A stretch of 64,000 bases of DNA from a virus. The stretch lies in the IMG/VR virus record IMGVR_UViG_3300030012_005163, positions 96,001-160,000 of that record; one strand, written 5' to 3'. Positions within the stretch are counted from its first letter, which is position 1; each line of letters starts with the position of its first letter. The notes under the pieces are model-generated. The model was not told where the DNA came from, made no database searches, and worked only from the letters and a program-made list of their open reading frames with translations. Both the position numbers and the translations under genes were made by a program. Positions 36,767 through 60,425 of this stretch are shown here, one piece after another.

Positions 36767-36931
36767 ATGATTAGTTTAGAAAATATAGATAAATTTAAAT
36801 TACTGTATAACGATGCAGTAAGTAAAAATAAAGAAATGTTTGTGTTTGAAGGTAGAGATGTTCTTACTTCATACGCTAAATATGTTATTGAATATTTTAA
36901 TAACATACTCGATGCTCGAGTGGTGGAATAG
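36767..36931 (+). CDS. small hypothetical protein (54 aa, paralog B; not in the ORF track)
   Basis: MISLENIDKFKLLYNDAVSKNKEMFVFEGR...; last 18 nt overlap tRNA-Leu. Confidence 0.7.
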   Translation: MISLENIDKFKLLYNDAVSKNKEMFVFEGRDVLTSYAKYVIEYFNNILDARVVE

Positions 36932-36997
36932 GTAGACACGCAAGACTTAAAATCTTGTTCCCATTTGGGAGTGCGGGTTCGATTCCCGCTTCGAGTA
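36914..36997 (+). tRNA. trnL: tRNA-Leu (anticodon TAA)
   Basis: GCTCGAG/TTCGAGT acceptor, D-loop GGAATAGGTAGAC, CAAGA-CTTAAAA-TCTTG anticodon arm, long variable arm, GGTTCGATTCC T-arm; no encoded CCA. Confidence 0.93.
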
Positions 36998-37003
36998 CAT
37001 ATT

Positions 37004-37077
37004 GGACCGGTAGCTCAGCTGGATAGAGCATCTGCCTTCTAAGCAGACGGTCGGAGGTTCGAATCCTCCCCGGTTCA
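37004..37077 (+). tRNA. trnR: tRNA-Arg (anticodon TCT)
   Basis: GGACCGG/CCGGTTC acceptor, TAGCTCAGCTGGATAGAGC, TCTGC-CTTCTAA-GCAGA, GGTTCGAATCC; no encoded CCA. Confidence 0.95.
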
Positions 37078-38367
37078 CTTTTTTTCTTTAAAGTCTGGAT
37101 TTGGTGCAACAAATGCTCTGAGTTTAACTTTATCCCAATCTTTTAACTCAGTAGGTGTTTCTTCGTCCCACAATTCATCATTATAATCATCTTCATCATA
37201 ATAATCTTCAGTAGGTTTATCACCCATTTTTAAAATAGACATTGTTCTATGCCAACCTTCTACTAATTGATAAGTACCATCGGGATTTTGTAGGATAATA
37301 ACTGGTTCATTCATTCCATCATCTCTCCTCATACTCATTTGAGTGTCCATTCGTTCTTCATCATTGGGTACGTTGTATGCATTTATATTACCGAAGTCCC
37401 TTTGTTCAAACGCTCTTACTGTACGTTTATCAAAATCCATTGGGTTTACATTTAAAACTTGTAACTTCCACGGACCTTTTAAATAGTTATACCACCATCC
37501 ATTTCCATCGCCCTTAATATAAGGTATTGGATCACCATTATACATGTTTAATATATCTTTTATTGCTGGACGATGACCTGGTGCTCTCATTAGTATAATA
37601 TTTCTATAATAATCTTGTAAGACATATTCTGGTGTGTCAGGGAATTCTCTCCTCATTTTTTCATATATTCTTTTATGAGGATTATTATCTTTATATATTG
37701 GAATACTAGTTACCTCTTCTTCTAACTCCACACCCATTTCATATTTGTTTTTGTTTGGGTTTGCATCACTAACATTCCAGTACTTTAAATCCTCTTCTAT
37801 TTTAGATAATTGACTTTCAGTAATAATAATTTTTCTTTTAGTAATACTTTCATTTATAGTTCGTAATACATCTGCTTCTGTATCAAAAACCTCATCATAA
37901 TCTCCTTGATGTATTTCATCATCTATGTGAGTTGTTAATTCTGGACTCACTACATTACCATAATCGAATTCCCAGTCCATTGCGTCTATGGCAGTATCAC
38001 TATCATCTGACACGACAGTATTTTTGATTTCTCTCCAAGAATTTATGTTTTGATAAAATTTAATTTGATACTCTTTCATTTGTGGTACAACTACTTCTTC
38101 TATAGAAGCAAAATCACCATCTTTATTTAAAACATTGAATAAATTATTTTTATATAAAGCATAAAAATACATAAGTATATCCTTATCTAATGCTAAGTTA
38201 CCTATGATGTTAGAATCCATTAAAAGATTAAGATCCGTTTTTTTAGTTGATGCATAGTCATTTATTTTACCACCTAAAGTTCTATATATTTCTCTTAATA
38301 TTGCAATTTCAAAATTATTGAACGGTTGAGTATCAGTAGTATTTCTTATAATGTCTTTTAATTTCAT
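37075..38367 (-). CDS. Two-part protein with C-terminal ParB/sulfiredoxin-like domain
   Basis: EPVIILQNPDGTYQLVEGWHRT ParB-N motif; likely start MKLKDII at 38367, downstream of a minus-strand ATATTTATTA. Confidence 0.6.
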   Translation of the reverse strand: MKLKDIIRNTTDTQPFNNFEIAILREIYRTLGGKINDYASTKKTDLNLLMDSNIIGNLALDKDILMYFYALYKNNLFNVLNKDGDFASIEEVVVPQMKEYQIKFYQNINSWREIKNTVVSDDSDTAIDAMDWEFDYGNVVSPELTTHIDDEIHQGDYDEVFDTEADVLRTINESITKRKIIITESQLSKIEEDLKYWNVSDANPNKNKYEMGVELEEEVTSIPIYKDNNPHKRIYEKMRREFPDTPEYVLQDYYRNIILMRAPGHRPAIKDILNMYNGDPIPYIKGDGNGWWYNYLKGPWKLQVLNVNPMDFDKRTVRAFEQRDFGNINAYNVPNDEERMDTQMSMRRDDGMNEPVIILQNPDGTYQLVEGWHRTMSILKMGDKPTEDYYDEDDYNDELWDEETPTELKDWDKVKLRAFVAPNPDFKEKK

Positions 38368-54145: not shown

Positions 54146-54571
54146 ATGAGATTAATAGTCAATGATAAACAATATAAACGTTTAATAGAACAACAAAATA
54201 AAGAAAACAACTTTGTTAATGGTTGGGGATTATTGATTAAAGATACTATATTAAAAAGATTAGAAAATAAAACTTTAAGTGAAAATATTATTTCACTAAA
54301 TAAATTAAATATTAAATTAGGTAATAAAAAGTTTTTTAATGAATTACCTATTGATAATCTAATATTAAATATTTATAATGAAAGTATTGATGATTTTCAG
54401 AGTGAGTGGGATGAGGAAGAAACTTATTTATGTGAATCTAAACATATAAAAAATGTAGTTTTAGATATTACAATAAATGGAGAAAAAGAATTAAATGAAA
54501 CTATTAATGAAAATTATATTAAAATAAATTTGTTAAAAATAAAAAAATGGTATGAAAATAAAAATAACTGA
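54146..54571 (+). CDS. hypothetical protein (possible head-associated)
   Basis: MRLIVNDKQYKRLIEQ leader. Confidence 0.6.
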   Translation: MRLIVNDKQYKRLIEQQNKENNFVNGWGLLIKDTILKRLENKTLSENIISLNKLNIKLGNKKFFNELPIDNLILNIYNESIDDFQSEWDEEETYLCESKHIKNVVLDITINGEKELNETINENYIKINLLKIKKWYENKNN

Positions 54572-55574
54572 ACAACAATTAATAAAGATTAAAGAAGATA
54601 GTGAGTCTTCTGAAACTTTAACTACTTTGGCAAATTTAACTTCTACTGCAGATAAATGGCAAGAGGATTTAGATGGTAAATATTTACGTAGATTTAGAAA
54701 AAACAATAAAGAACATGTTAAAAGAATTCAAACAATGTTAACTCTATTGGGTTATGATGTAGGGCACTATGGTGATGGTGAACCGGTTATAGACGGTATA
54801 TATGGACCTGACACTGCAGAGGCAGTTAGAAAATTTCAAAAAGACACTTTTATTGAACCCATTGAGTGGGATAGTATAGTAGGACCTAAAACCTATACTG
54901 AATTATATGTTGATATAGAAGAATTAGGAGATGAACATGCTATGTCAGTAGAAGAGATTTTATTATTAGGTTTGGACGATGAAAATATTATGGGTGATGA
55001 AGATGATCCACATTATGGTGATGACGAAGAAGAGGAAGAAGGTGAAGGAGAGGAAGAAGAATTAAATTGGGATGAAGTTGGTGCTGGTGACTATGAAATA
55101 AGTGATGAAGTAAGTAAGTTAGGAAAAGAAGTTGTGGATAAAGCATCGGAAAGACTAGGTGAACCTTATAAGTGGGGTGGTAAATTTGATGGTGTAGGTG
55201 GTGATTGTAGTGGATTAGTAGATTGGACATTTAGACATGTTGATGGTGTTGATTCACCGGGAAGAGATACTACTTCTACATTAAAAAGAGAAGAAGGTTT
55301 CAGAGCGGGAAAAGATAACTATAACGAAGTAAAACCAGGCGATATTTTATTATTTGATGGTAAAAAAGCGAGACATACTGGAATTGTATCTGATGTAAAT
55401 GGTGACACAATTAGTATGATTCATTCTGCAGGTACTGGTTGGGATAAGGGTACTAAAAGAGGAGTACAAATAACTAAAGATACATTTAATGGTTATAAGT
55501 ATTTTAGAAATAATTATTTAGGTTACGTCCCTTTAGAGTATTTTATGGTTGACAAAGGAGATGTAATGGCTTAA
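54552..55574 (+). CDS. PG-binding plus NlpC/P60 cell-wall hydrolase
   Basis: VKRIQTML..IDGIYGPDTAEAVRKFQ; GEPYKWGG, DCSGLV, PGDILLF, RHTGI, MIHSAG (Cys-His-His); acidic linker. Confidence 0.85.
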   Translation: MKIKITEQQLIKIKEDSESSETLTTLANLTSTADKWQEDLDGKYLRRFRKNNKEHVKRIQTMLTLLGYDVGHYGDGEPVIDGIYGPDTAEAVRKFQKDTFIEPIEWDSIVGPKTYTELYVDIEELGDEHAMSVEEILLLGLDDENIMGDEDDPHYGDDEEEEEGEGEEEELNWDEVGAGDYEISDEVSKLGKEVVDKASERLGEPYKWGGKFDGVGGDCSGLVDWTFRHVDGVDSPGRDTTSTLKREEGFRAGKDNYNEVKPGDILLFDGKKARHTGIVSDVNGDTISMIHSAGTGWDKGTKRGVQITKDTFNGYKYFRNNYLGYVPLEYFMVDKGDVMA

Positions 55575-55584
55575 ATTTAATTAT

Positions 55585-55962
55585 ATGAACAAGTACGGAG
55601 GAGTTTTATTAATTTGTGAGAAAACAAATAATTTTTTATTATTAAAAAGATCTAAAGAATCTAGTTACCCCAAAACGTGGTCTATAGTTTCTGGAGGTAT
55701 AGAAAAAGGTGAAAAACCTTTAGAGGGTATCAAAAGAGAATTAGAAGAAGAAACTGGTATTAATGATAAAAATATAAGGTACGAATTTTTTGAACATCAA
55801 AATCAGTTAATTCCTTATTTTGACTTCTACATTGGATATTGTGATGAAGAATTTGTTTGTAAGTTAGATAATGAAAATACTGATTGTGGTTGGTTTAACT
55901 TAGAAAATTTACCCAAACCATTATTTCCTACCCTTTATTCTTCACTAGTTAGAATTATTTAA
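55585..55962 (+). CDS. Nudix hydrolase
   Basis: Complete Nudix box GGIEKGEKPLEGIKRELEEETGI. Confidence 0.9.
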   Translation: MNKYGGVLLICEKTNNFLLLKRSKESSYPKTWSIVSGGIEKGEKPLEGIKRELEEETGINDKNIRYEFFEHQNQLIPYFDFYIGYCDEEFVCKLDNENTDCGWFNLENLPKPLFPTLYSSLVRII

Positions 55963-55975
55963 TTATAATTGTAAT

Positions 55976-56167
55976 ATGGATGAAATAGAAAGAGAAAGAT
56001 TCAACATAGAAATGGATCGTGAAAAAACTCAACTTAAAAAAGAACAATTTATTCGTGAAATTAAAAATGGGTTAGGTGAACACATTAAAAAAAATGGTAA
56101 TAAAGTTAAAAAAATTAAAAGAAGTAAATGGGAAAACTTCTGGACACGAATAAAAAATATATTTTAA
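55976..56167 (+). CDS. small hypothetical protein
   Basis: 63-aa ORF. Confidence 0.6.
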   Translation: MDEIERERFNIEMDREKTQLKKEQFIREIKNGLGEHIKKNGNKVKKIKRSKWENFWTRIKNIF

Positions 56168-56168
56168 A

Positions 56169-56390
56169 ATGGACTTAGAAAAAGTTTTAGAGATAGCAAA
56201 CGAATGTGTAAGTAATGAAGTAATTCCTACAGAAGGGTTAACTTTAACTTATTTTTTAGAAAGAAAATTACATAGACATTTAGATGAAGAGTTATTTTAT
56301 AAAACTAATAATAATAATAGTTCATTTAGTCATAATGAAGAAATAGAAGTTAATATTGCAGGTATAACTTTTATATTTAAACAGAAATAA
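56169..56390 (+). CDS. small hypothetical protein
   Basis: 73-aa ORF. Confidence 0.6.
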   Translation: MDLEKVLEIANECVSNEVIPTEGLTLTYFLERKLHRHLDEELFYKTNNNNSSFSHNEEIEVNIAGITFIFKQK

Positions 56391-56432: not shown

Positions 56433-57194
56433 ATGGAAAATTTGAATCAAATAACTTATAATCAATATTCTATCAAAATAGGTAAAAATTGTGATATTGC
56501 AGATGATGTCATTATCGGTAAAAACCCCAAAATAGGTAATAATGTTAGAATCTGTTCGGGAACTATCATAGGGGATAATGTTAAAATTTATGATGGTGCA
56601 ATAATTGGATCTGACCCACAAGATTTAGTCTATGAAAATGATATACTCACTCAAACTATCATAGGAGATAATGTAACGATAAGAGAATATGTAACAATAA
56701 ATAGAGGTAGTGAGAGAACTTTAAAAACAGTGGTTGGTGATAATTGTTATCTAATGTCGTATTCACACGTATCACATGACACTATCTTAGGTGATAATGT
56801 AATTTTAGCTAATTCAGTTCAAATAGGAGGTAATAGTGTTATTGAGGATTTTGTGTTTATGGGTGGTGGTGCCGTTCTACATCAAAAAGGAAGAATTGGT
56901 AAACATGCAATGATAGGTGGTGGGTCCGTTTTAAATAAAGATGTTTTACCATTCTCAACAATTTTGGGGGTTAACACTACATTAATAGGTGTTAATATAG
57001 TAGGAATTAAAAAGAACTATGATAAAGAAAAAATAAATAATATTCAAAACATATTTAATAAACTTAAAGAAGAAGGTTTATTTAGTAATAAAATTAAGTA
57101 TATAGAATCATTGAGTACTGAAGAATCACAAATTATATGTGATTTTGTTAAAAACAATAAAAGACCTTTATTATTATGGGAGAAAAAATATTAA
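56433..57194 (+). CDS. lpxA: LpxA-like acyl-ACP:UDP-N-acetylglucosamine O-acyltransferase
   Basis: Hexapeptide left-handed beta-helix; IGSDPQDL, TIREYVTINRGS, MSYSHVSHD, HQKGRIG, MIGGGS, DVLPF, GVNIVG plus helical C-terminal domain. Confidence 0.8.
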   Translation: MENLNQITYNQYSIKIGKNCDIADDVIIGKNPKIGNNVRICSGTIIGDNVKIYDGAIIGSDPQDLVYENDILTQTIIGDNVTIREYVTINRGSERTLKTVVGDNCYLMSYSHVSHDTILGDNVILANSVQIGGNSVIEDFVFMGGGAVLHQKGRIGKHAMIGGGSVLNKDVLPFSTILGVNTTLIGVNIVGIKKNYDKEKINNIQNIFNKLKEEGLFSNKIKYIESLSTEESQIICDFVKNNKRPLLLWEKKY

Positions 57195-57967
57195 GTATTT
57201 GTATACCATCGTTGTTTCCTAGAAAAAAACAACTTAATAAATTATTATTAGATTTAGAAAAACAAATTAAAATTAATAATTTAGAAGAAATGGTAGAAAT
57301 ACTAGTGTGTGTTGATAATGGAGAAATTACTTTAGGTGAAAAAAGTAATAAACTTGTGAATAAAGCGGTAGGGAATTATATTACAGGAATAGGGGATGAT
57401 GATATTGTAAAACCTACATATGTAAAAGATATATATGATATTGCCAAAAATAAAAAGTATGATCAAATAACATTTATAAAAGAATGTGTTGAGGGTAAAA
57501 AAATTATCCCTATGGAGTTTTCTAAAAAATATAAAAATTATATTATATTTTTACCTTTTAATATAGAAATACATTCTTTAAAATTTTTAAGTAATGAAAG
57601 TGATAAATTAATAGTGTATAGAAATAAAAGAATCTTATTTGAAAATAATTTAGTAGTAGGTTTAGTTTTTATTATTTTTAAAAAGTTTATTAAAAAAATA
57701 GCGTGTTACAGTTGGCCCACAATGGTAGTAAAAAAAGATATAGTGGATAAAGTTAAGTTTACCGACTTAAAAAGTGGGCAAGATATGGAATGGGCAATAA
57801 ATTTATCTAAAAAAAAATTAATAAAAAAAGAATATAATATAAATAAACCTTTATATGTGTACAAGTTTAATAAGAAAAAATCTAGTAGATTTAACAACAC
57901 TAATATAATTACTGATATTAACCATACAATAAAACCAGTAGATAAAAAAATAGTAAAATTTATATAA
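57176..57967 (+). CDS. Family 2 (GT-A) glycosyltransferase
   Basis: LSICIPSL, VCVDNG, GEKSNKLVNKAVGNYITGIGDDDIV (DxD region), GQDMEWA; overlaps lpxA by 19 nt. Confidence 0.8.
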   Translation: MGEKILSICIPSLFPRKKQLNKLLLDLEKQIKINNLEEMVEILVCVDNGEITLGEKSNKLVNKAVGNYITGIGDDDIVKPTYVKDIYDIAKNKKYDQITFIKECVEGKKIIPMEFSKKYKNYIIFLPFNIEIHSLKFLSNESDKLIVYRNKRILFENNLVVGLVFIIFKKFIKKIACYSWPTMVVKKDIVDKVKFTDLKSGQDMEWAINLSKKKLIKKEYNINKPLYVYKFNKKKSSRFNNTNIITDINHTIKPVDKKIVKFI

Positions 57968-57968
57968 A

Positions 57969-59030
57969 ATGGAAGAAAAAAACGACATAAATGACTTTGT
58001 TAATTTTATCTTAAATGACGAAGTAAAAGAAAATGAAAAAGAATTAGGTTTAGAACATCCTAGTGTGGAATATGAAGCTAAAGAAAGAGAAGTAGTAGAT
58101 AAAGTTTTAGAAGAACGTAGTATCGAAGAGAGATTATCTTATTATACTTGTAAAAGGTTTCAAGGTGAAGAAAGAGGTGTTTGTGATAAATTAAATGTAT
58201 TAGGTAGGTGGTTAAAAGAAAAAGATGGGTTAGATATGCAACCTATTATAGATACCTTATTGTTACCACGTAAAGATGATAGAGATATGAATCCTAATTT
58301 TCAAGAACCTTTAAAGTATTTGTATGAAACTGGCAAATTCAAAGACATAAGCGAAAAAGATGGTTATTACACATCTCAAAGACTATTAAGTTGTGAGTTA
58401 GTCAGAAATGAAGAAGGTGAATGGGTATTTGTGAACAAATTAAATACTAGTTGGAGTGATCTTGCAGAACTACTTACTACATTGTTTATGAGGGGTGGTA
58501 AAATAGGGGAACTTAAACATATGAATGTTACTGAAATAAAAAACTTTCTTTTAAATTTAAGAAACAGTGGTAACCCAACAAGAAAAAATCCTCAGTCATC
58601 ACATTTATATAGATTATTAGAAAAATATTTTACTGTGGATGAGTATGATGAATATACATATAATACTCGAAAGAATACTATCATAGGAGATGAAATAGAA
58701 GACTTAACAATTAAGTTATTGGAAAAACAAGGTTTTAAATTACTTTATCACGGTAATAATGGTAACTTTATTGATATGAAGTATGGTATTGATATGATTA
58801 TGGAATTAGAGGGTAAAGTTTATTTAATACAAGTTAAGAGTAAGTCTAACGCAGCGAAGATGGCAATGGATTATCCTAATTATAGATATATTGATTTATT
58901 CGCTGGTGAAACTCCAGATAAGAATGGTATAATGTTATATGACAGAGAATCTATGAAAGAAGGTGAATTCATCGCCAAAGATATCCTACAAGATAATTTA
59001 GATTATCTGATTAATAAGTACTCCAATTAA
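57969..59030 (+). CDS. hypothetical protein with C-terminal PD-(D/E)XK nuclease-like domain
   Basis: GDEIEDL..LLEKQGF...GIDMIMELEGKVYLIQVKSK. Confidence 0.55.
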   Translation: MEEKNDINDFVNFILNDEVKENEKELGLEHPSVEYEAKEREVVDKVLEERSIEERLSYYTCKRFQGEERGVCDKLNVLGRWLKEKDGLDMQPIIDTLLLPRKDDRDMNPNFQEPLKYLYETGKFKDISEKDGYYTSQRLLSCELVRNEEGEWVFVNKLNTSWSDLAELLTTLFMRGGKIGELKHMNVTEIKNFLLNLRNSGNPTRKNPQSSHLYRLLEKYFTVDEYDEYTYNTRKNTIIGDEIEDLTIKLLEKQGFKLLYHGNNGNFIDMKYGIDMIMELEGKVYLIQVKSKSNAAKMAMDYPNYRYIDLFAGETPDKNGIMLYDRESMKEGEFIAKDILQDNLDYLINKYSN

Positions 59031-59726: not shown

Positions 59727-60425
59727 ATGGAGGAAAAAAATAGAATATTAATAATTGGTGTAGATAAAGAAATTCATTCATCAATTACAGAGCAATTCGA
59801 CACCCAAAATTTTGAGTGTGTTGCAGTAACACACGGAAAAGAAGGGTTAAGTAAAATAAGAGAGTTTAGATTTGATGTCGTAATTTTAGATGAAAAATTA
59901 GTGGATATCGAAGGATTAGATTTAGTTCAAACCATAAGATTAGAGGATAGTAAAACACCTATTATATATATTAGTTTTCACGATCATGAAAACAAAATGT
60001 TACAATTACTACGAAATGGTGTAAATGATTATTTAGTAAAACCTTTATCTTATGAAGAAATAAAATATAAAACTATAAATTATATTAAATTATTTGGTAA
60101 AAATGTTAATAATATGACTACTGATAAAATAGATATTGGTGATCATAGCATTGATTTTAAATCATTTATTGTTAGTAATGAGGTAGGTGATGAATTTAGA
60201 TTAACCCAAAGACAAGTTAAATTACTAAAACTTTTAATTAGTAAGAATAATGAAGTTGTATCAAGAGAAGAAATTTTAGAAAAGATATGGGGTTATGATG
60301 TTTACATAAAAACTAGAACAATAGATAATGTTATACTGTCTTTAAGAAAAATATTTGAGAAGGACAAAACCCCTAATACTTTCTTTAAATCTGTAAGAGG
60401 GGTAGGTTATAAATTAACTTTTTAA
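59727..60425 (+). CDS. OmpR/PhoB-family response regulator (receiver plus winged helix)
   Basis: FDVVILDE, TPIIYIS, GVNDYLVKP; VVSREEILEKIWG, TRTIDN, SVRGVGYK. Confidence 0.88.
   Translation: MEEKNRILIIGVDKEIHSSITEQFDTQNFECVAVTHGKEGLSKIREFRFDVVILDEKLVDIEGLDLVQTIRLEDSKTPIIYISFHDHENKMLQLLRNGVNDYLVKPLSYEEIKYKTINYIKLFGKNVNNMTTDKIDIGDHSIDFKSFIVSNEVGDEFRLTQRQVKLLKLLISKNNEVVSREEILEKIWGYDVYIKTRTIDNVILSLRKIFEKDKTPNTFFKSVRGVGYKLTF

Follow-up and report, generated by a model that had tools for sequence, protein, structure and literature searches.

A phage-borne LpxA-derived acyltransferase coupled to a glycosyltransferase in a hypervariable island of a marine T4-like phage

A phage-borne enzyme derived from LpxA is coupled to a GT2 glycosyltransferase (GT) in the window, the stretch of 64,000 nucleotides analysed here (positions 96,001 to 160,000 of IMG/VR record IMGVR_UViG_3300030012_005163). 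This central claim of the original prediction stands. Two functions had been offered for the pair, remodelling of host lipid A/LPS or production of an acylated nucleotide-sugar for the GT2. The evidence leans to the second on three grounds: a remodelled sugar pocket, a start/stop overlap that has been conserved, and the joint diversification of the two genes. The favoured reading, to which we assign a probability of about 0.45, is that the captured LpxA and the glycosyltransferase form a two-step acyl-sugar module with a variable target.

Results

Gene arrangement and origin of the record

The features of the locus are as follows.

55585..55962, plus strand: Nudix hydrolase, a conserved neighbour (PF00293, E 3.8e-16)
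55976..56390, plus strand: two small conserved ORFs (63 and 73 aa), kept in close relatives
56433..57194, plus strand: full-length LpxA-derived acyltransferase, 253 aa (NF003657, PF00132, PF13720, PDB matches, tree, residues)
56500..57900, no strand assigned: divergence island, most of lpxA and the whole GT (nucleotide identity against locus L008, dN/dS)
57176..57194, plus strand: overlap of the lpxA stop and the GT start, 19 nt, translational coupling (ORF coordinates, sequence)
57176..57967, plus strand: divergent GT2 (GT-A fold), 263 aa, of which about 60 (roughly residues 121-177) form an insert specific to the lineage (phrog_14775, relatives, AF2 model)
57969..59030, plus strand: 353-aa protein starting 2 nt past the GT stop (cross-locus conservation)

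The two-domain LpxA-like reading frame overlaps the GT2 frame by 19 nt exactly where this had been claimed, and the Nudix gene, described as lying about 470 nt upstream, ends 470 nt before the lpxA start. It is a conserved neighbour of the pair, syntenic in related loci with a dN/dS of 0.06-0.09. The gap between them is occupied by the two small ORFs, which are conserved in related phages. Every closely related locus has them, and their identity to the L008 copies is 96-98%; searches against Pfam, PHROG and PADLOC gave no family match for them. When the module and the genes next to it were scanned with PADLOC, a weak Nudix match was the only result. The 353-aa protein is highly conserved (95-98% identity across loci, dN/dS about 0.04) and therefore lies outside the variable cassette; at locus L013 it is absent and the lpxA-GT pair is still present. 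It has no match in Pfam, PHROG or PADLOC. Atlas clusters that resemble it carry RE_TaqI, RE_MjaI or Mrr_cat, a lead only, and it possibly has a restriction-endonuclease-like PD-(D/E)xK fold. The genes around the pair are non-structural, including a peptidoglycan hydrolase, the Nudix hydrolase and a response regulator, and the virion modules are far off.

The whole record of 198 kb, about 60% complete, belongs to a T4-like phage, and either end carries phage genes: those for terminase, portal, protease and major head at the left and phage families at the right. Baseplate, RNR and helicase genes are encoded as well. The GC content is uniform along the record, and independent assemblies show the same gene order. 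These observations dispose of a provirus or host contamination and of a chimeric assembly, either of which would have undermined the original prediction. Among GenBank phages, megablast with 14 kb gave zero matches and tblastn with LpxA gave nothing above 29-34% identity, several such genes being on bacterial contigs filed as phage. The carriers are a clade of large T4-like marine phages, with AT-rich Bacteroidota as their probable hosts.

LpxA identity and descent

The 253-residue protein passes the LpxA model NF003657 (232.4 bits, cut-off 226) and falls just under that of TIGR01852 (228.6, cut-off 231.05). Both the left-handed beta-helix (PF00132, Hexapep, 2.3e-26) and the LpxA-specific C-terminal helical domain (PF13720, 1.6e-10, residues 170-245) are present. 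Every top match in the PDB is an LpxA structure (3r0s, E 4e-47), and the aligned span covers residues 22-249. Clustering with generic sugar O-acetyltransferases of the NeuD, PglB, WbbJ or Mac type, which had been named as a refuting outcome, is ruled out by the scores: NeuD reached 87 bits and the others at most 36, against 232 for LpxA. The shortened LpxA-like N-acetyltransferases of the 8E62 type, of about 190 residues and without the C-terminal helical domain, were rejected as well. PDB 8E62 ranks 18th (E 9.4e-23 against 4e-47 for LpxA structures), whereas the phage protein is full length with PF13720, keeps the 3-hydroxyacyl contacts and lies on a true LpxA branch.

The tree was a quick build with long branches and AT-rich composition. 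In it the phage LpxA proteins form a single monophyletic clade (SH-aLRT 100) with a long stem (0.67). This clade is enclosed by Bacteroidota LpxA (support 98), its sister being the chromosomal lpxA P0012 (support 96). The latter is found in the chromosomal order HD-lpxD-lpxC/fabZ-lpxA-efp on a marine contig of 25.5% GC, and its product is at most 59% identical to LpxA of any of 400 sampled genomes from one Bacteroidota class. The best 80 genome matches to the phage LpxA are nearly all from Bacteroidota, at 38-45% identity. The phylogeny against host LpxA proposed at the outset thus places the phage protein inside Bacteroidota LpxA, and on this tree its descent from a Bacteroidota lpxA is shown.

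Active site and nucleotide-sugar pocket

The residue assignments made by eye in the original prediction all hold in the alignment with E. coli LpxA. In E. coli numbering, Q73, D74, H122, H125, D126, H160, Q161 and N198 are kept in the window protein, which carries the changes K76V, H144N, R204K, R205N or a gap, F162K and L116Y. In the E. coli enzyme H125 and D126 are catalytic, G143 forms the oxyanion site, H122 and Q73 contact the acyl 3-OH group, and N198 and Q161 are among the contacts to uracil and alpha-phosphate of UDP (PMC6286764). All nine members of the phage clade have Q73, H122, H125, D126, H160, Q161 and N198, and G143 is invariant.

The UDP-GlcNAc pocket, with residue lists taken from PMC7072397 (D74, L75, K76, H144, F162, L116, R204 and R205), is in a different state and is not conserved in the phage proteins. 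D74 is replaced by His in 4/9, K76 is lost in 7/9 and R205 in 9/9, while F162 is changed to Lys, Asn or Arg and L116 to Tyr in every member. Residues D74, K76, F162, L116, R205 and P191, changed or lost in the phage clade, are invariant in 105-111 of 111 cellular LpxA. Among these 111 proteins 54 positions are at least 95% conserved, and 15 of them, with D74, K76, F162 and L116 of the pocket among their number, are changed in at least 3 of the nine phage proteins. It is important to note that not every such change is diagnostic, since genuine Bacteroidota LpxA likewise differ at the H144 position, with either H or E. The ruler position G173 is occupied by G, A, L or T within the clade. The window protein retains G173 as well as D74 and passes NF003657, and it may therefore still accept UDP-GlcNAc.

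The nine phage proteins are 52-87% identical overall. Their variation clusters in the sugar loop (61-75) and in a UDP/ACP-facing segment (166-195), while the beta-helix core is 0.82-0.89 identical. Judged by these alignments, the chemistry and the acyl 3-OH and UDP contacts appear to be intact, and the residues that read the sugar appear to have been remodelled and to be still changing within the clade.

The glycosyltransferase

The GT of the window has no Pfam/NCBIfam match at E <= 0.01, and the assignment to GT2 is upheld by other evidence. It matches PHROG glycosyltransferase families (phrog_14775 at 1.5e-22), and a profile search collected 2851 relatives, some of which pass PF00535 (26-34 bits, threshold 23.3). 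The AF2 model (pLDDT 92.2, pTM 0.90) has a GT-A fold, and Foldseek matched it with probability 1.0 to the GT-A/GT2 structures 6p61, TarS, TarP, WrtF and RmlT. Among 50 relatives the DxD motif D74-D75-D76 and the C-terminal acidic residue D203 are invariant or nearly so and K56 is invariant. Within the phage clade, variation is concentrated in residues 121-165 of the insert. The half of the enzyme predicted to bind the nucleotide-sugar is conserved, and the insert, probably on the acceptor side, is its most variable part. Glycosyltransferases of mycobacteriophages and Gordonia phages resemble the N-terminal third of the protein. Distant relatives are also found without LpxA.

Conservation and variability of the pair

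The pair occurs in six distinct marine phage loci, and the two genes overlap in 6/6, by 19, 19, 19, 19, 4 and 11 nt, so the synteny that was to be looked for is present; the overlap is retained even at L013, where the surrounding genes differ. An IMG/VR scan with the clade alignment gave no additional member, the best match being 39% identical in the beta-helix only, and this GT family was found in 0/24 remote IMG/VR loci.

Compared with L008, the window has a nucleotide identity of 61-81% in the sharply delimited island, 94-100% upstream and about 90% downstream. The dN/dS values are 0.34 for LpxA, 4-8 times those of the flanking genes (0.04-0.09), and 0.45 for the GT; all are below 1 and the reading frames are intact. 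The faster evolution relative to the neighbours suggests that the pair makes an acylated sugar directed at a target that varies, and does not simply top up host lipid A. In comparison with L099, however, the GT is 95% identical and LpxA only 71%. The two genes are therefore separately exchangeable, which weakens strict co-adaptation, and the high divergence of the pair could result from cassette recombination instead of selection on specificity.

Related genes elsewhere in the record

No family match to ACP, LpxC, LpxB or FabZ was obtained in the 198-kb record, about 60% of the genome, nor was an aminotransferase, GFO-type oxidoreductase, epimerase, nucleotidyltransferase or other nucleotide-sugar gene found there. 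Host substrates must therefore be used, and nothing found supports phage synthesis of an exotic sugar. A second glycan cluster in the same genome adjoins head and baseplate genes. A PIG-L-type de-N-acetylase and LpxD-like and NeuD-like acyltransferases are located 130 kb from the pair beside further glycosyltransferases, the PIG-L and LpxD-like cluster being at C1:16.5-26.6 kb. The LpxD-like beta-helix protein was not accepted as LpxD, its score of 163 bits being below the cut-off of 207 and its family being mostly without the LpxD N-terminal domain. DNA, one of the glycosylation targets first suggested, is without support, as a thymidylate-synthase-type hydroxymethylase was not found in the 198 kb.

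Discussion

Comparison with known systems

Cellular LpxA (NF003657/TIGR01852; 3R0S, 4R36, 1LXA) and the phage protein share the fold, the length and the C-terminal helical domain, as well as H125-D126, G143, H122/Q73 and N198/Q161. However, the phage gene has no lpxC, lpxD or lpxB context and overlaps a GT2 gene, and in its product D74, K76, H144, F162, L116 and R205 are changed or polymorphic, with evolution 4-8 times faster than in the neighbours. It is useful to consider LpxA of Leptospira interrogans (PDB 3HSQ), which prefers another sugar nucleotide, UDP-GlcNAc3N. In this enzyme the Lys76 equivalent is replaced (Gly71; PMC7072397 Table 1), as in 7/9 phage proteins, and the LpxA family can therefore switch its acceptor sugar. 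The Leptospira protein differs in being a lipid A enzyme of a cellular pathway, and the phage record is without aminotransferase and oxidoreductase genes for making GlcNAc3N.

TarS and TarP are structurally similar to the phage GT, and TarP, the product of a prophage gene, modifies a polymer of the host surface (PMC9650247). The identity is only 11-15%, however. The phage GT is set apart by the insert of about 60 residues, is without the C-terminal domains of TarS/TarP and is paired with LpxA. In Vibrio schizotequatroviruses an island that is swapped between close relatives contains a glycosyltransferase together with a PagP-like lipid A acyltransferase (PMC12028318). As in the present case, a large marine T4-like phage carries a lipid A-type acyltransferase and a GT in a replaced region, but PagP, an enzyme of the outer membrane, is unrelated, LpxA is absent, the GT gene is not overlapped, and the host belongs to another phylum.

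Proposed function and alternatives

In the proposed acyl-sugar module, a host lpxA would have been captured once by the clade of large T4-like marine phages, and its product would have been kept active, transferring an (R)-3-hydroxyacyl group from host acyl-ACP to a host UDP-sugar. The gene would be co-translated with that of the GT-A glycosyltransferase, which would consume the O-acylated UDP-(GlcNAc-type) sugar and so draw the LpxA reaction, which is thermodynamically unfavourable, in the forward direction; in cells LpxC has this effect. The GT would then attach the acyl-sugar to an acceptor that varies from one host strain or phage lineage to another. A component of the envelope is the most likely acceptor, and the virion a less likely one. 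We know of no glycosyltransferase with UDP-3-O-acyl-GlcNAc as donor; LpxB is a GT-B enzyme and its donor is the diacylated form. The module could be extended to a phage-run lipid A-like side pathway, which we regard as rather improbable. There LpxA would O-acylate the UDP-sugar, the GT2 would transfer it, and the PIG-L-type, LpxD-like and NeuD-like enzymes would re-tailor it, so that an acylated glucosamine glycoconjugate would be built with neither LpxC nor LpxB. Arms-race diversification would act on the specificity, for instance in excluding competing phages or escaping envelope-based defence. The immune visibility mentioned in the original prediction is inapplicable as a motive to a marine phage.

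The main competing explanation is a canonical auxiliary metabolic gene. In this case UDP-3-O-(3-hydroxyacyl)-GlcNAc would feed the host Raetz pathway, either supplying outer membrane during a long jumbo-phage infection or changing the primary acyl-chain length of host lipid A, and the GT would be an unrelated neighbour. The score above the equivalog model NF003657, the descent from chromosomal Bacteroidota lpxA and the retention of all catalytic, 3-OH-acyl and UDP contacts are what would be expected, and the variation at G173 could alter chain length (ruler concept, PMC7072397). In addition, lists of viral LPS genes from marine viromes include lpxA (PMC10653327), and a PagP-type lipid A acyltransferase shares a swappable island with a GT in Vibrio phage K566 (PMC12028318). 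However, commitment to the pathway and its regulation do not lie at the LpxA step. The reaction of this enzyme is unfavourable and can be reversed (PMC6286764), so that extra LpxA alone should add little flux. The loss of pocket residues that cellular LpxA hardly ever vary, the raised dN/dS and the overlap with the GT kept in all six loci also speak against this explanation. A bounded hypervariable island is not predicted by a housekeeping-type function. We consider the auxiliary role somewhat unlikely.

Two further explanations change the target or the activity of the pair. Mycobacteriophage glycosyltransferases glycosylate virions, and the resemblance of the N-terminal third of the GT to these and to the Gordonia phage enzymes, together with the second glycan cluster beside head and baseplate genes, would fit an acylated glycan built on head or tail proteins and not on the cell. 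Against this, the pair is distant from the virion modules, a Ser/Thr-rich acceptor protein was not seen nearby, and we know of no precedent for a soluble virion protein that bears a cytoplasmic 3-hydroxy fatty-acylated sugar, all of which makes virion decoration improbable. The long branch and the loss of several substrate-pocket residues might instead indicate a non-catalytic protein that sequesters 3-hydroxyacyl-ACP or UDP-GlcNAc or disturbs host lipid A control, leaving the envelope weakened or reprogrammed. However, all nine proteins, in spite of their divergence, retain the His-Asp dyad, the oxyanion Gly and the residues that contact the acyl 3-OH. This fits selection for catalysis, and such a binder or decoy seems very unlikely.

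Implications

LpxA is a housekeeping enzyme and an antibiotic target. The pocket of cellular LpxA is almost frozen, and the phage lineage provides a natural series of pocket variants in which the chemistry appears to be kept. The pair, hypervariable within clear bounds, is thereby marked out as a host-interaction locus of uncultured marine jumbo phages whose hosts are probably Bacteroidota. The pair also offers a direct test of whether the viral "LPS genes" of virome surveys are really metabolic boosters. If it makes an acylated sugar for the GT, phages would have a glycolipid or acyl-glycan pathway of a new kind, and the GT would be the first glycosyltransferase besides LpxB shown to use an acylated UDP-sugar.

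Organization of the lpxA-GT pair

The window corresponds to G000:C1:96001-160000 in an IMG/VR virus record of 198,361 bp. The gene for the LpxA-derived acyltransferase (lpxA) and the overlapping gene for a GT2 glycosyltransferase (GT) are located in the window among the following features.

54552-55574: NlpC/P60-CHAP peptidoglycan hydrolase with a PG_binding_1 domain and a long acidic linker
56433-57194, plus strand: lpxA, called ORF of 253 aa
57176-57967, plus strand: GT, called ORF of 263 aa
57969-59030: 353-aa protein, starting 2 nt past the GT stop
59727-60425: complete OmpR-type response regulator (receiver and winged-helix domains)

The 19-nt overlap of the original prediction is borne out, with the GT ATG lying within the final codons of lpxA. 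The Nudix gene, which had been placed about 470 nt upstream, indeed ends 470 nt before lpxA, and the gap is filled by two small conserved ORFs (63 and 73 aa). No terminator-like site was found at 55.4-60.6 kb; the pair therefore lies in a long co-directional run. The order NlpC/P60, Nudix, 63 aa, 73 aa, lpxA, GT, 353 aa is repeated in independent TARA, JGI and ENA assemblies. Synteny across phages, a check proposed earlier, revealed the overlapping pair in six distinct loci, in each of which the end of lpxA runs past the GT start, by 19, 19, 19, 19, 4 and 11 nt. The more distant locus L013 keeps the overlapping pair despite quite different neighbours (HSP70, thioredoxin, M23 peptidase).

The pair belongs to phage DNA and not to host contamination or a chimera, as is evident from the phage modules, the uniform GC content (25-34%) and the same gene order in independent assemblies. 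The record contains 173 densely packed, mostly co-directional ORFs, with terminase, portal, prohead protease and major head protein genes at its left end, baseplate wedge, RNR, DnaB-type helicase and SbcC-like genes in the window, and DNA methyltransferases, a peptidase, a PNK-like gene and a tRNA nucleotidyltransferase downstream. Phage genes at both ends and the uniform GC make the IMG/VR class "provirus" look like a misclassification, for which the host-like glycan and LpxA genes may be responsible. Two adjacent tRNA genes at 36914-37078, Leu(TAA) and Arg(TCT), both read A/T-ending codons, which fits a very AT-rich phage and host.

Origin of the phage LpxA

The lpxA product scores above the cut-off of the NCBIfam equivalog NF003657 (232.4 versus 226 bits) and narrowly under that of TIGR01852 (228.6 versus 231.05 bits). 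Generic sugar acetyltransferase models reach at most 87 bits, which speaks against a generic sugar O-acetyltransferase. Both the hexapeptide helix and the C-terminal domain specific to LpxA are recognized by Pfam. The top 17 matches in the PDB are LpxA throughout, with C. jejuni 3R0S at E 4e-47; after them, in last place, comes the shortened acetyltransferase 8E62 (9e-23). By these matches, the family models and the tree below, the phage LpxA does not belong to the branch of 8E62.

The closest relatives among 5.8 billion proteins form eight clusters with 53-87% identity, and all readable contexts among them are phage-like. Below these, at no more than 47% identity, follow cellular LpxA in the thousands, the named ones mostly from Bacteroidota; the best 80 species-representative genomes are also almost all Bacteroidota (38-45%). 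A maximum-likelihood tree of 120 sequences places the nine phage proteins in a single clade (SH-aLRT 100) on a long stem of 0.67; this clade is sister to the cellular LpxA P0012 (96) inside Bacteroidota LpxA (98). By family models, PDB matches and tree, the phage protein is a real LpxA by descent. The gene for P0012 lies on a marine contig (25.5% GC) whose gene order, HD-lpxD-lpxC/fabZ-lpxA-efp, is that of Bacteroidota; the phage contigs have 27-28% GC. The monophyly of the phage clade and the chromosomal, AT-rich context of its sister support a single ancient capture of the gene from a marine, AT-rich lineage of Bacteroidota, as judged from a quick tree with long branches and skewed composition. 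Virome surveys have entered lpxA among viral LPS genes without analysis (PMC10653327), and no characterized phage LpxA was found in the literature searched.

Conserved and altered residues of LpxA

Contact roles (E. coli numbering) were taken from the product-complex legend of PMC6286764 and the pocket table of PMC7072397, and conservation was assessed against the 111 nearest cellular LpxA. Apart from D74, the residues earlier judged by eye to be kept are present in all nine phage proteins: the catalytic dyad H125-D126, the acyl 3-hydroxyl contacts H122 and Q73, N198 (uracil), Q161 (alpha-phosphate) and H160. The oxyanion-hole G143 is also invariant.

However, several residues each conserved in 105-111 of the 111 cellular proteins are changed. 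F162 is K, N or R, L116 is Y, A124 is S, and R205 (uracil O4 contact) is deleted or N in all nine; K76 (sugar ring oxygen contact) is V, N or I in seven, P191 is altered in seven, G173, the ruler of chain length, is replaced by A, L or T in five, and D74 is H in four. The window LpxA itself retains D74 and G173. The predicted changes of K76 and R205 are therefore confirmed. H144 (sugar 6-OH), also judged changed earlier, is N, R, E or H in the phage clade, but it is not diagnostic, since cellular Bacteroidota also have H or E. Among the cellular LpxA, 54 positions are near-invariant; the nine phage proteins all retain 28 of them, and at 15 at least three phage proteins differ.

Within the phage clade, the beta-helix core coils retain 0.82-0.89 identity. 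The sugar loop (61-75) has 0.46, versus 0.67 in the far broader cellular set, and the segment into the UDP-binding domain (166-195) has 0.43-0.51 versus 0.56-0.68. The simplest reading of these alignments is that the phage LpxA would be an active 3-hydroxyacyl transferase on a UDP-sugar, with sugar recognition altered and still changing. Neither genes making unusual UDP-sugars nor ACP were found in the phage record; the substrates must therefore be host-derived.

The GT2 protein

The GT protein has no match of its own in Pfam or NCBIfam, and it matches two PHROG glycosyltransferase families. Searching 1.84 billion representatives with a profile of the six syntenic copies gave 2851 relatives, including about ten full-length clusters. 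Most relatives among the best matches listed have 180-220 aa and align in two stretches, representing the same core without a central insert of about 60 aa; several pass PF00535. All 50 sequences compared share K56, D75 and D76 (DxD motif) and D203. The AlphaFold model (pLDDT 92, pTM 0.90) matches GT-A/GT2 enzymes with Foldseek probability 1.0 (a small Leptospira GT, TarS, TarP, WrtF, RmlT). The second gene of the pair is a divergent GT2. Within the clade, conservation is higher in its nucleotide-sugar half and lowest in the insert (residues 121-165; 0.31-0.39).

More distant full-length relatives occur on other phage-like contigs without LpxA. In two of three informative contexts a PIG-L-type GlcNAc de-N-acetylase is found beside the GT, immediately after P0127 and one gene off from P0130. 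These neighbours hint at a GlcNAc-type sugar for the GT, and the GT with the deacetylase may be a recurrent module.

Variability of the pair and its neighbours

Between the window and the related locus L008, identity is 95-98% for the Nudix protein and the 63-aa, 73-aa and 353-aa proteins (dN/dS 0.04-0.09), 65% for LpxA (0.34) and 49% for the GT (0.45). Nucleotide identity, 94-100% before, is only 61-81% at about 56,500-57,900 and about 90% beyond. In the comparison with L099, identity is 95% for the GT and only 71% for LpxA; the two genes are therefore also exchangeable separately. Both appear to be functional: no dN/dS value reaches 1, no ORF is disrupted, and the catalytic residues do not vary. 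By these sequence comparisons, the pair is a conserved yet hypervariable cassette. Bounded islands of this kind in phage genomes are usually home to host-interaction genes.

The upstream cell-wall hydrolase is also variable (51% identity to L099, 94% to L101). The 353-aa protein, without any family match, hardly varies (dN/dS about 0.04); its C-terminal part and Atlas look-alikes suggest a restriction-endonuclease-like fold. Gene content also varies at the position following its gene, which makes this a second variable slot close behind the pair. An extra 639-aa gene lies there, before a 212-aa gene, at L011:12605-14524 and L012:10767-12686, and L099 and L101 have at this position a gene of at least 979 aa, extending past the locus end. 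The response regulator is kept in all related loci, and no cognate kinase was seen near it. DnaJ, a glutamine synthetase-like protein and thioredoxin are encoded in related phages (L009:7743-10753), and in the more distant L013 (7962-9812) an HSP70/DnaK-like protein adjoins the pair.

A second glycan cluster is found in the same record.

G000:C1:16546-26572, minus strand: second glycan cluster (loci L004 and L005, outside the window)

It is flanked by the head module and a Phage_base_V (baseplate spike-like) gene, and encodes a GT2 (PF00535), an 811-aa GT2_5+GT4 fusion, a PIG-L/LmbE-type GlcNAc de-N-acetylase, a NeuD-like acetyltransferase and an LpxD-like beta-helix acyltransferase. The latter reaches 163 bits, short of the cut-off of 207, and is without the LpxD N-terminal domain.

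Possible function

LpxA catalyses a freely reversible, thermodynamically unfavourable reaction, which in cells is pulled by LpxC (PMC6286764). A lone extra LpxA is therefore a weak route to more lipid A flux, whereas a co-translated GT consuming the acyl-UDP-sugar would be a source of such pull. This pull, the remodelled pocket and the joint diversification lead us to favour, with a probability of roughly 0.45, a two-step acyl-sugar module formed by LpxA and the GT. Because of the place of the pair among non-structural genes, its acceptor seems more likely to be an envelope component than the virion. The main rival, a canonical or chain-length-altering lipid A gene with the GT as an unrelated neighbour, agrees with the NF003657 score and with D74 and G173 of the window protein, and Vibrio phage K566 has a PagP-type lipid A gene and a GT in a swappable island (PMC12028318); we regard it as somewhat less probable than the module.

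A phage lipid A-like side pathway joining the pair to the second cluster is unlikely. Virion decoration by the pair is improbable, as the pair sits among non-structural genes. LpxA as a non-catalytic decoy, with the dyad kept throughout the clade, is very improbable.

For the altered sugar pocket, the LpxA of Leptospira, whose substrate is UDP-GlcNAc3N, is a parallel. The Lys76 equivalent is likewise missing there (PMC7072397). This enzyme demonstrates that sugar switching is possible within the LpxA family.
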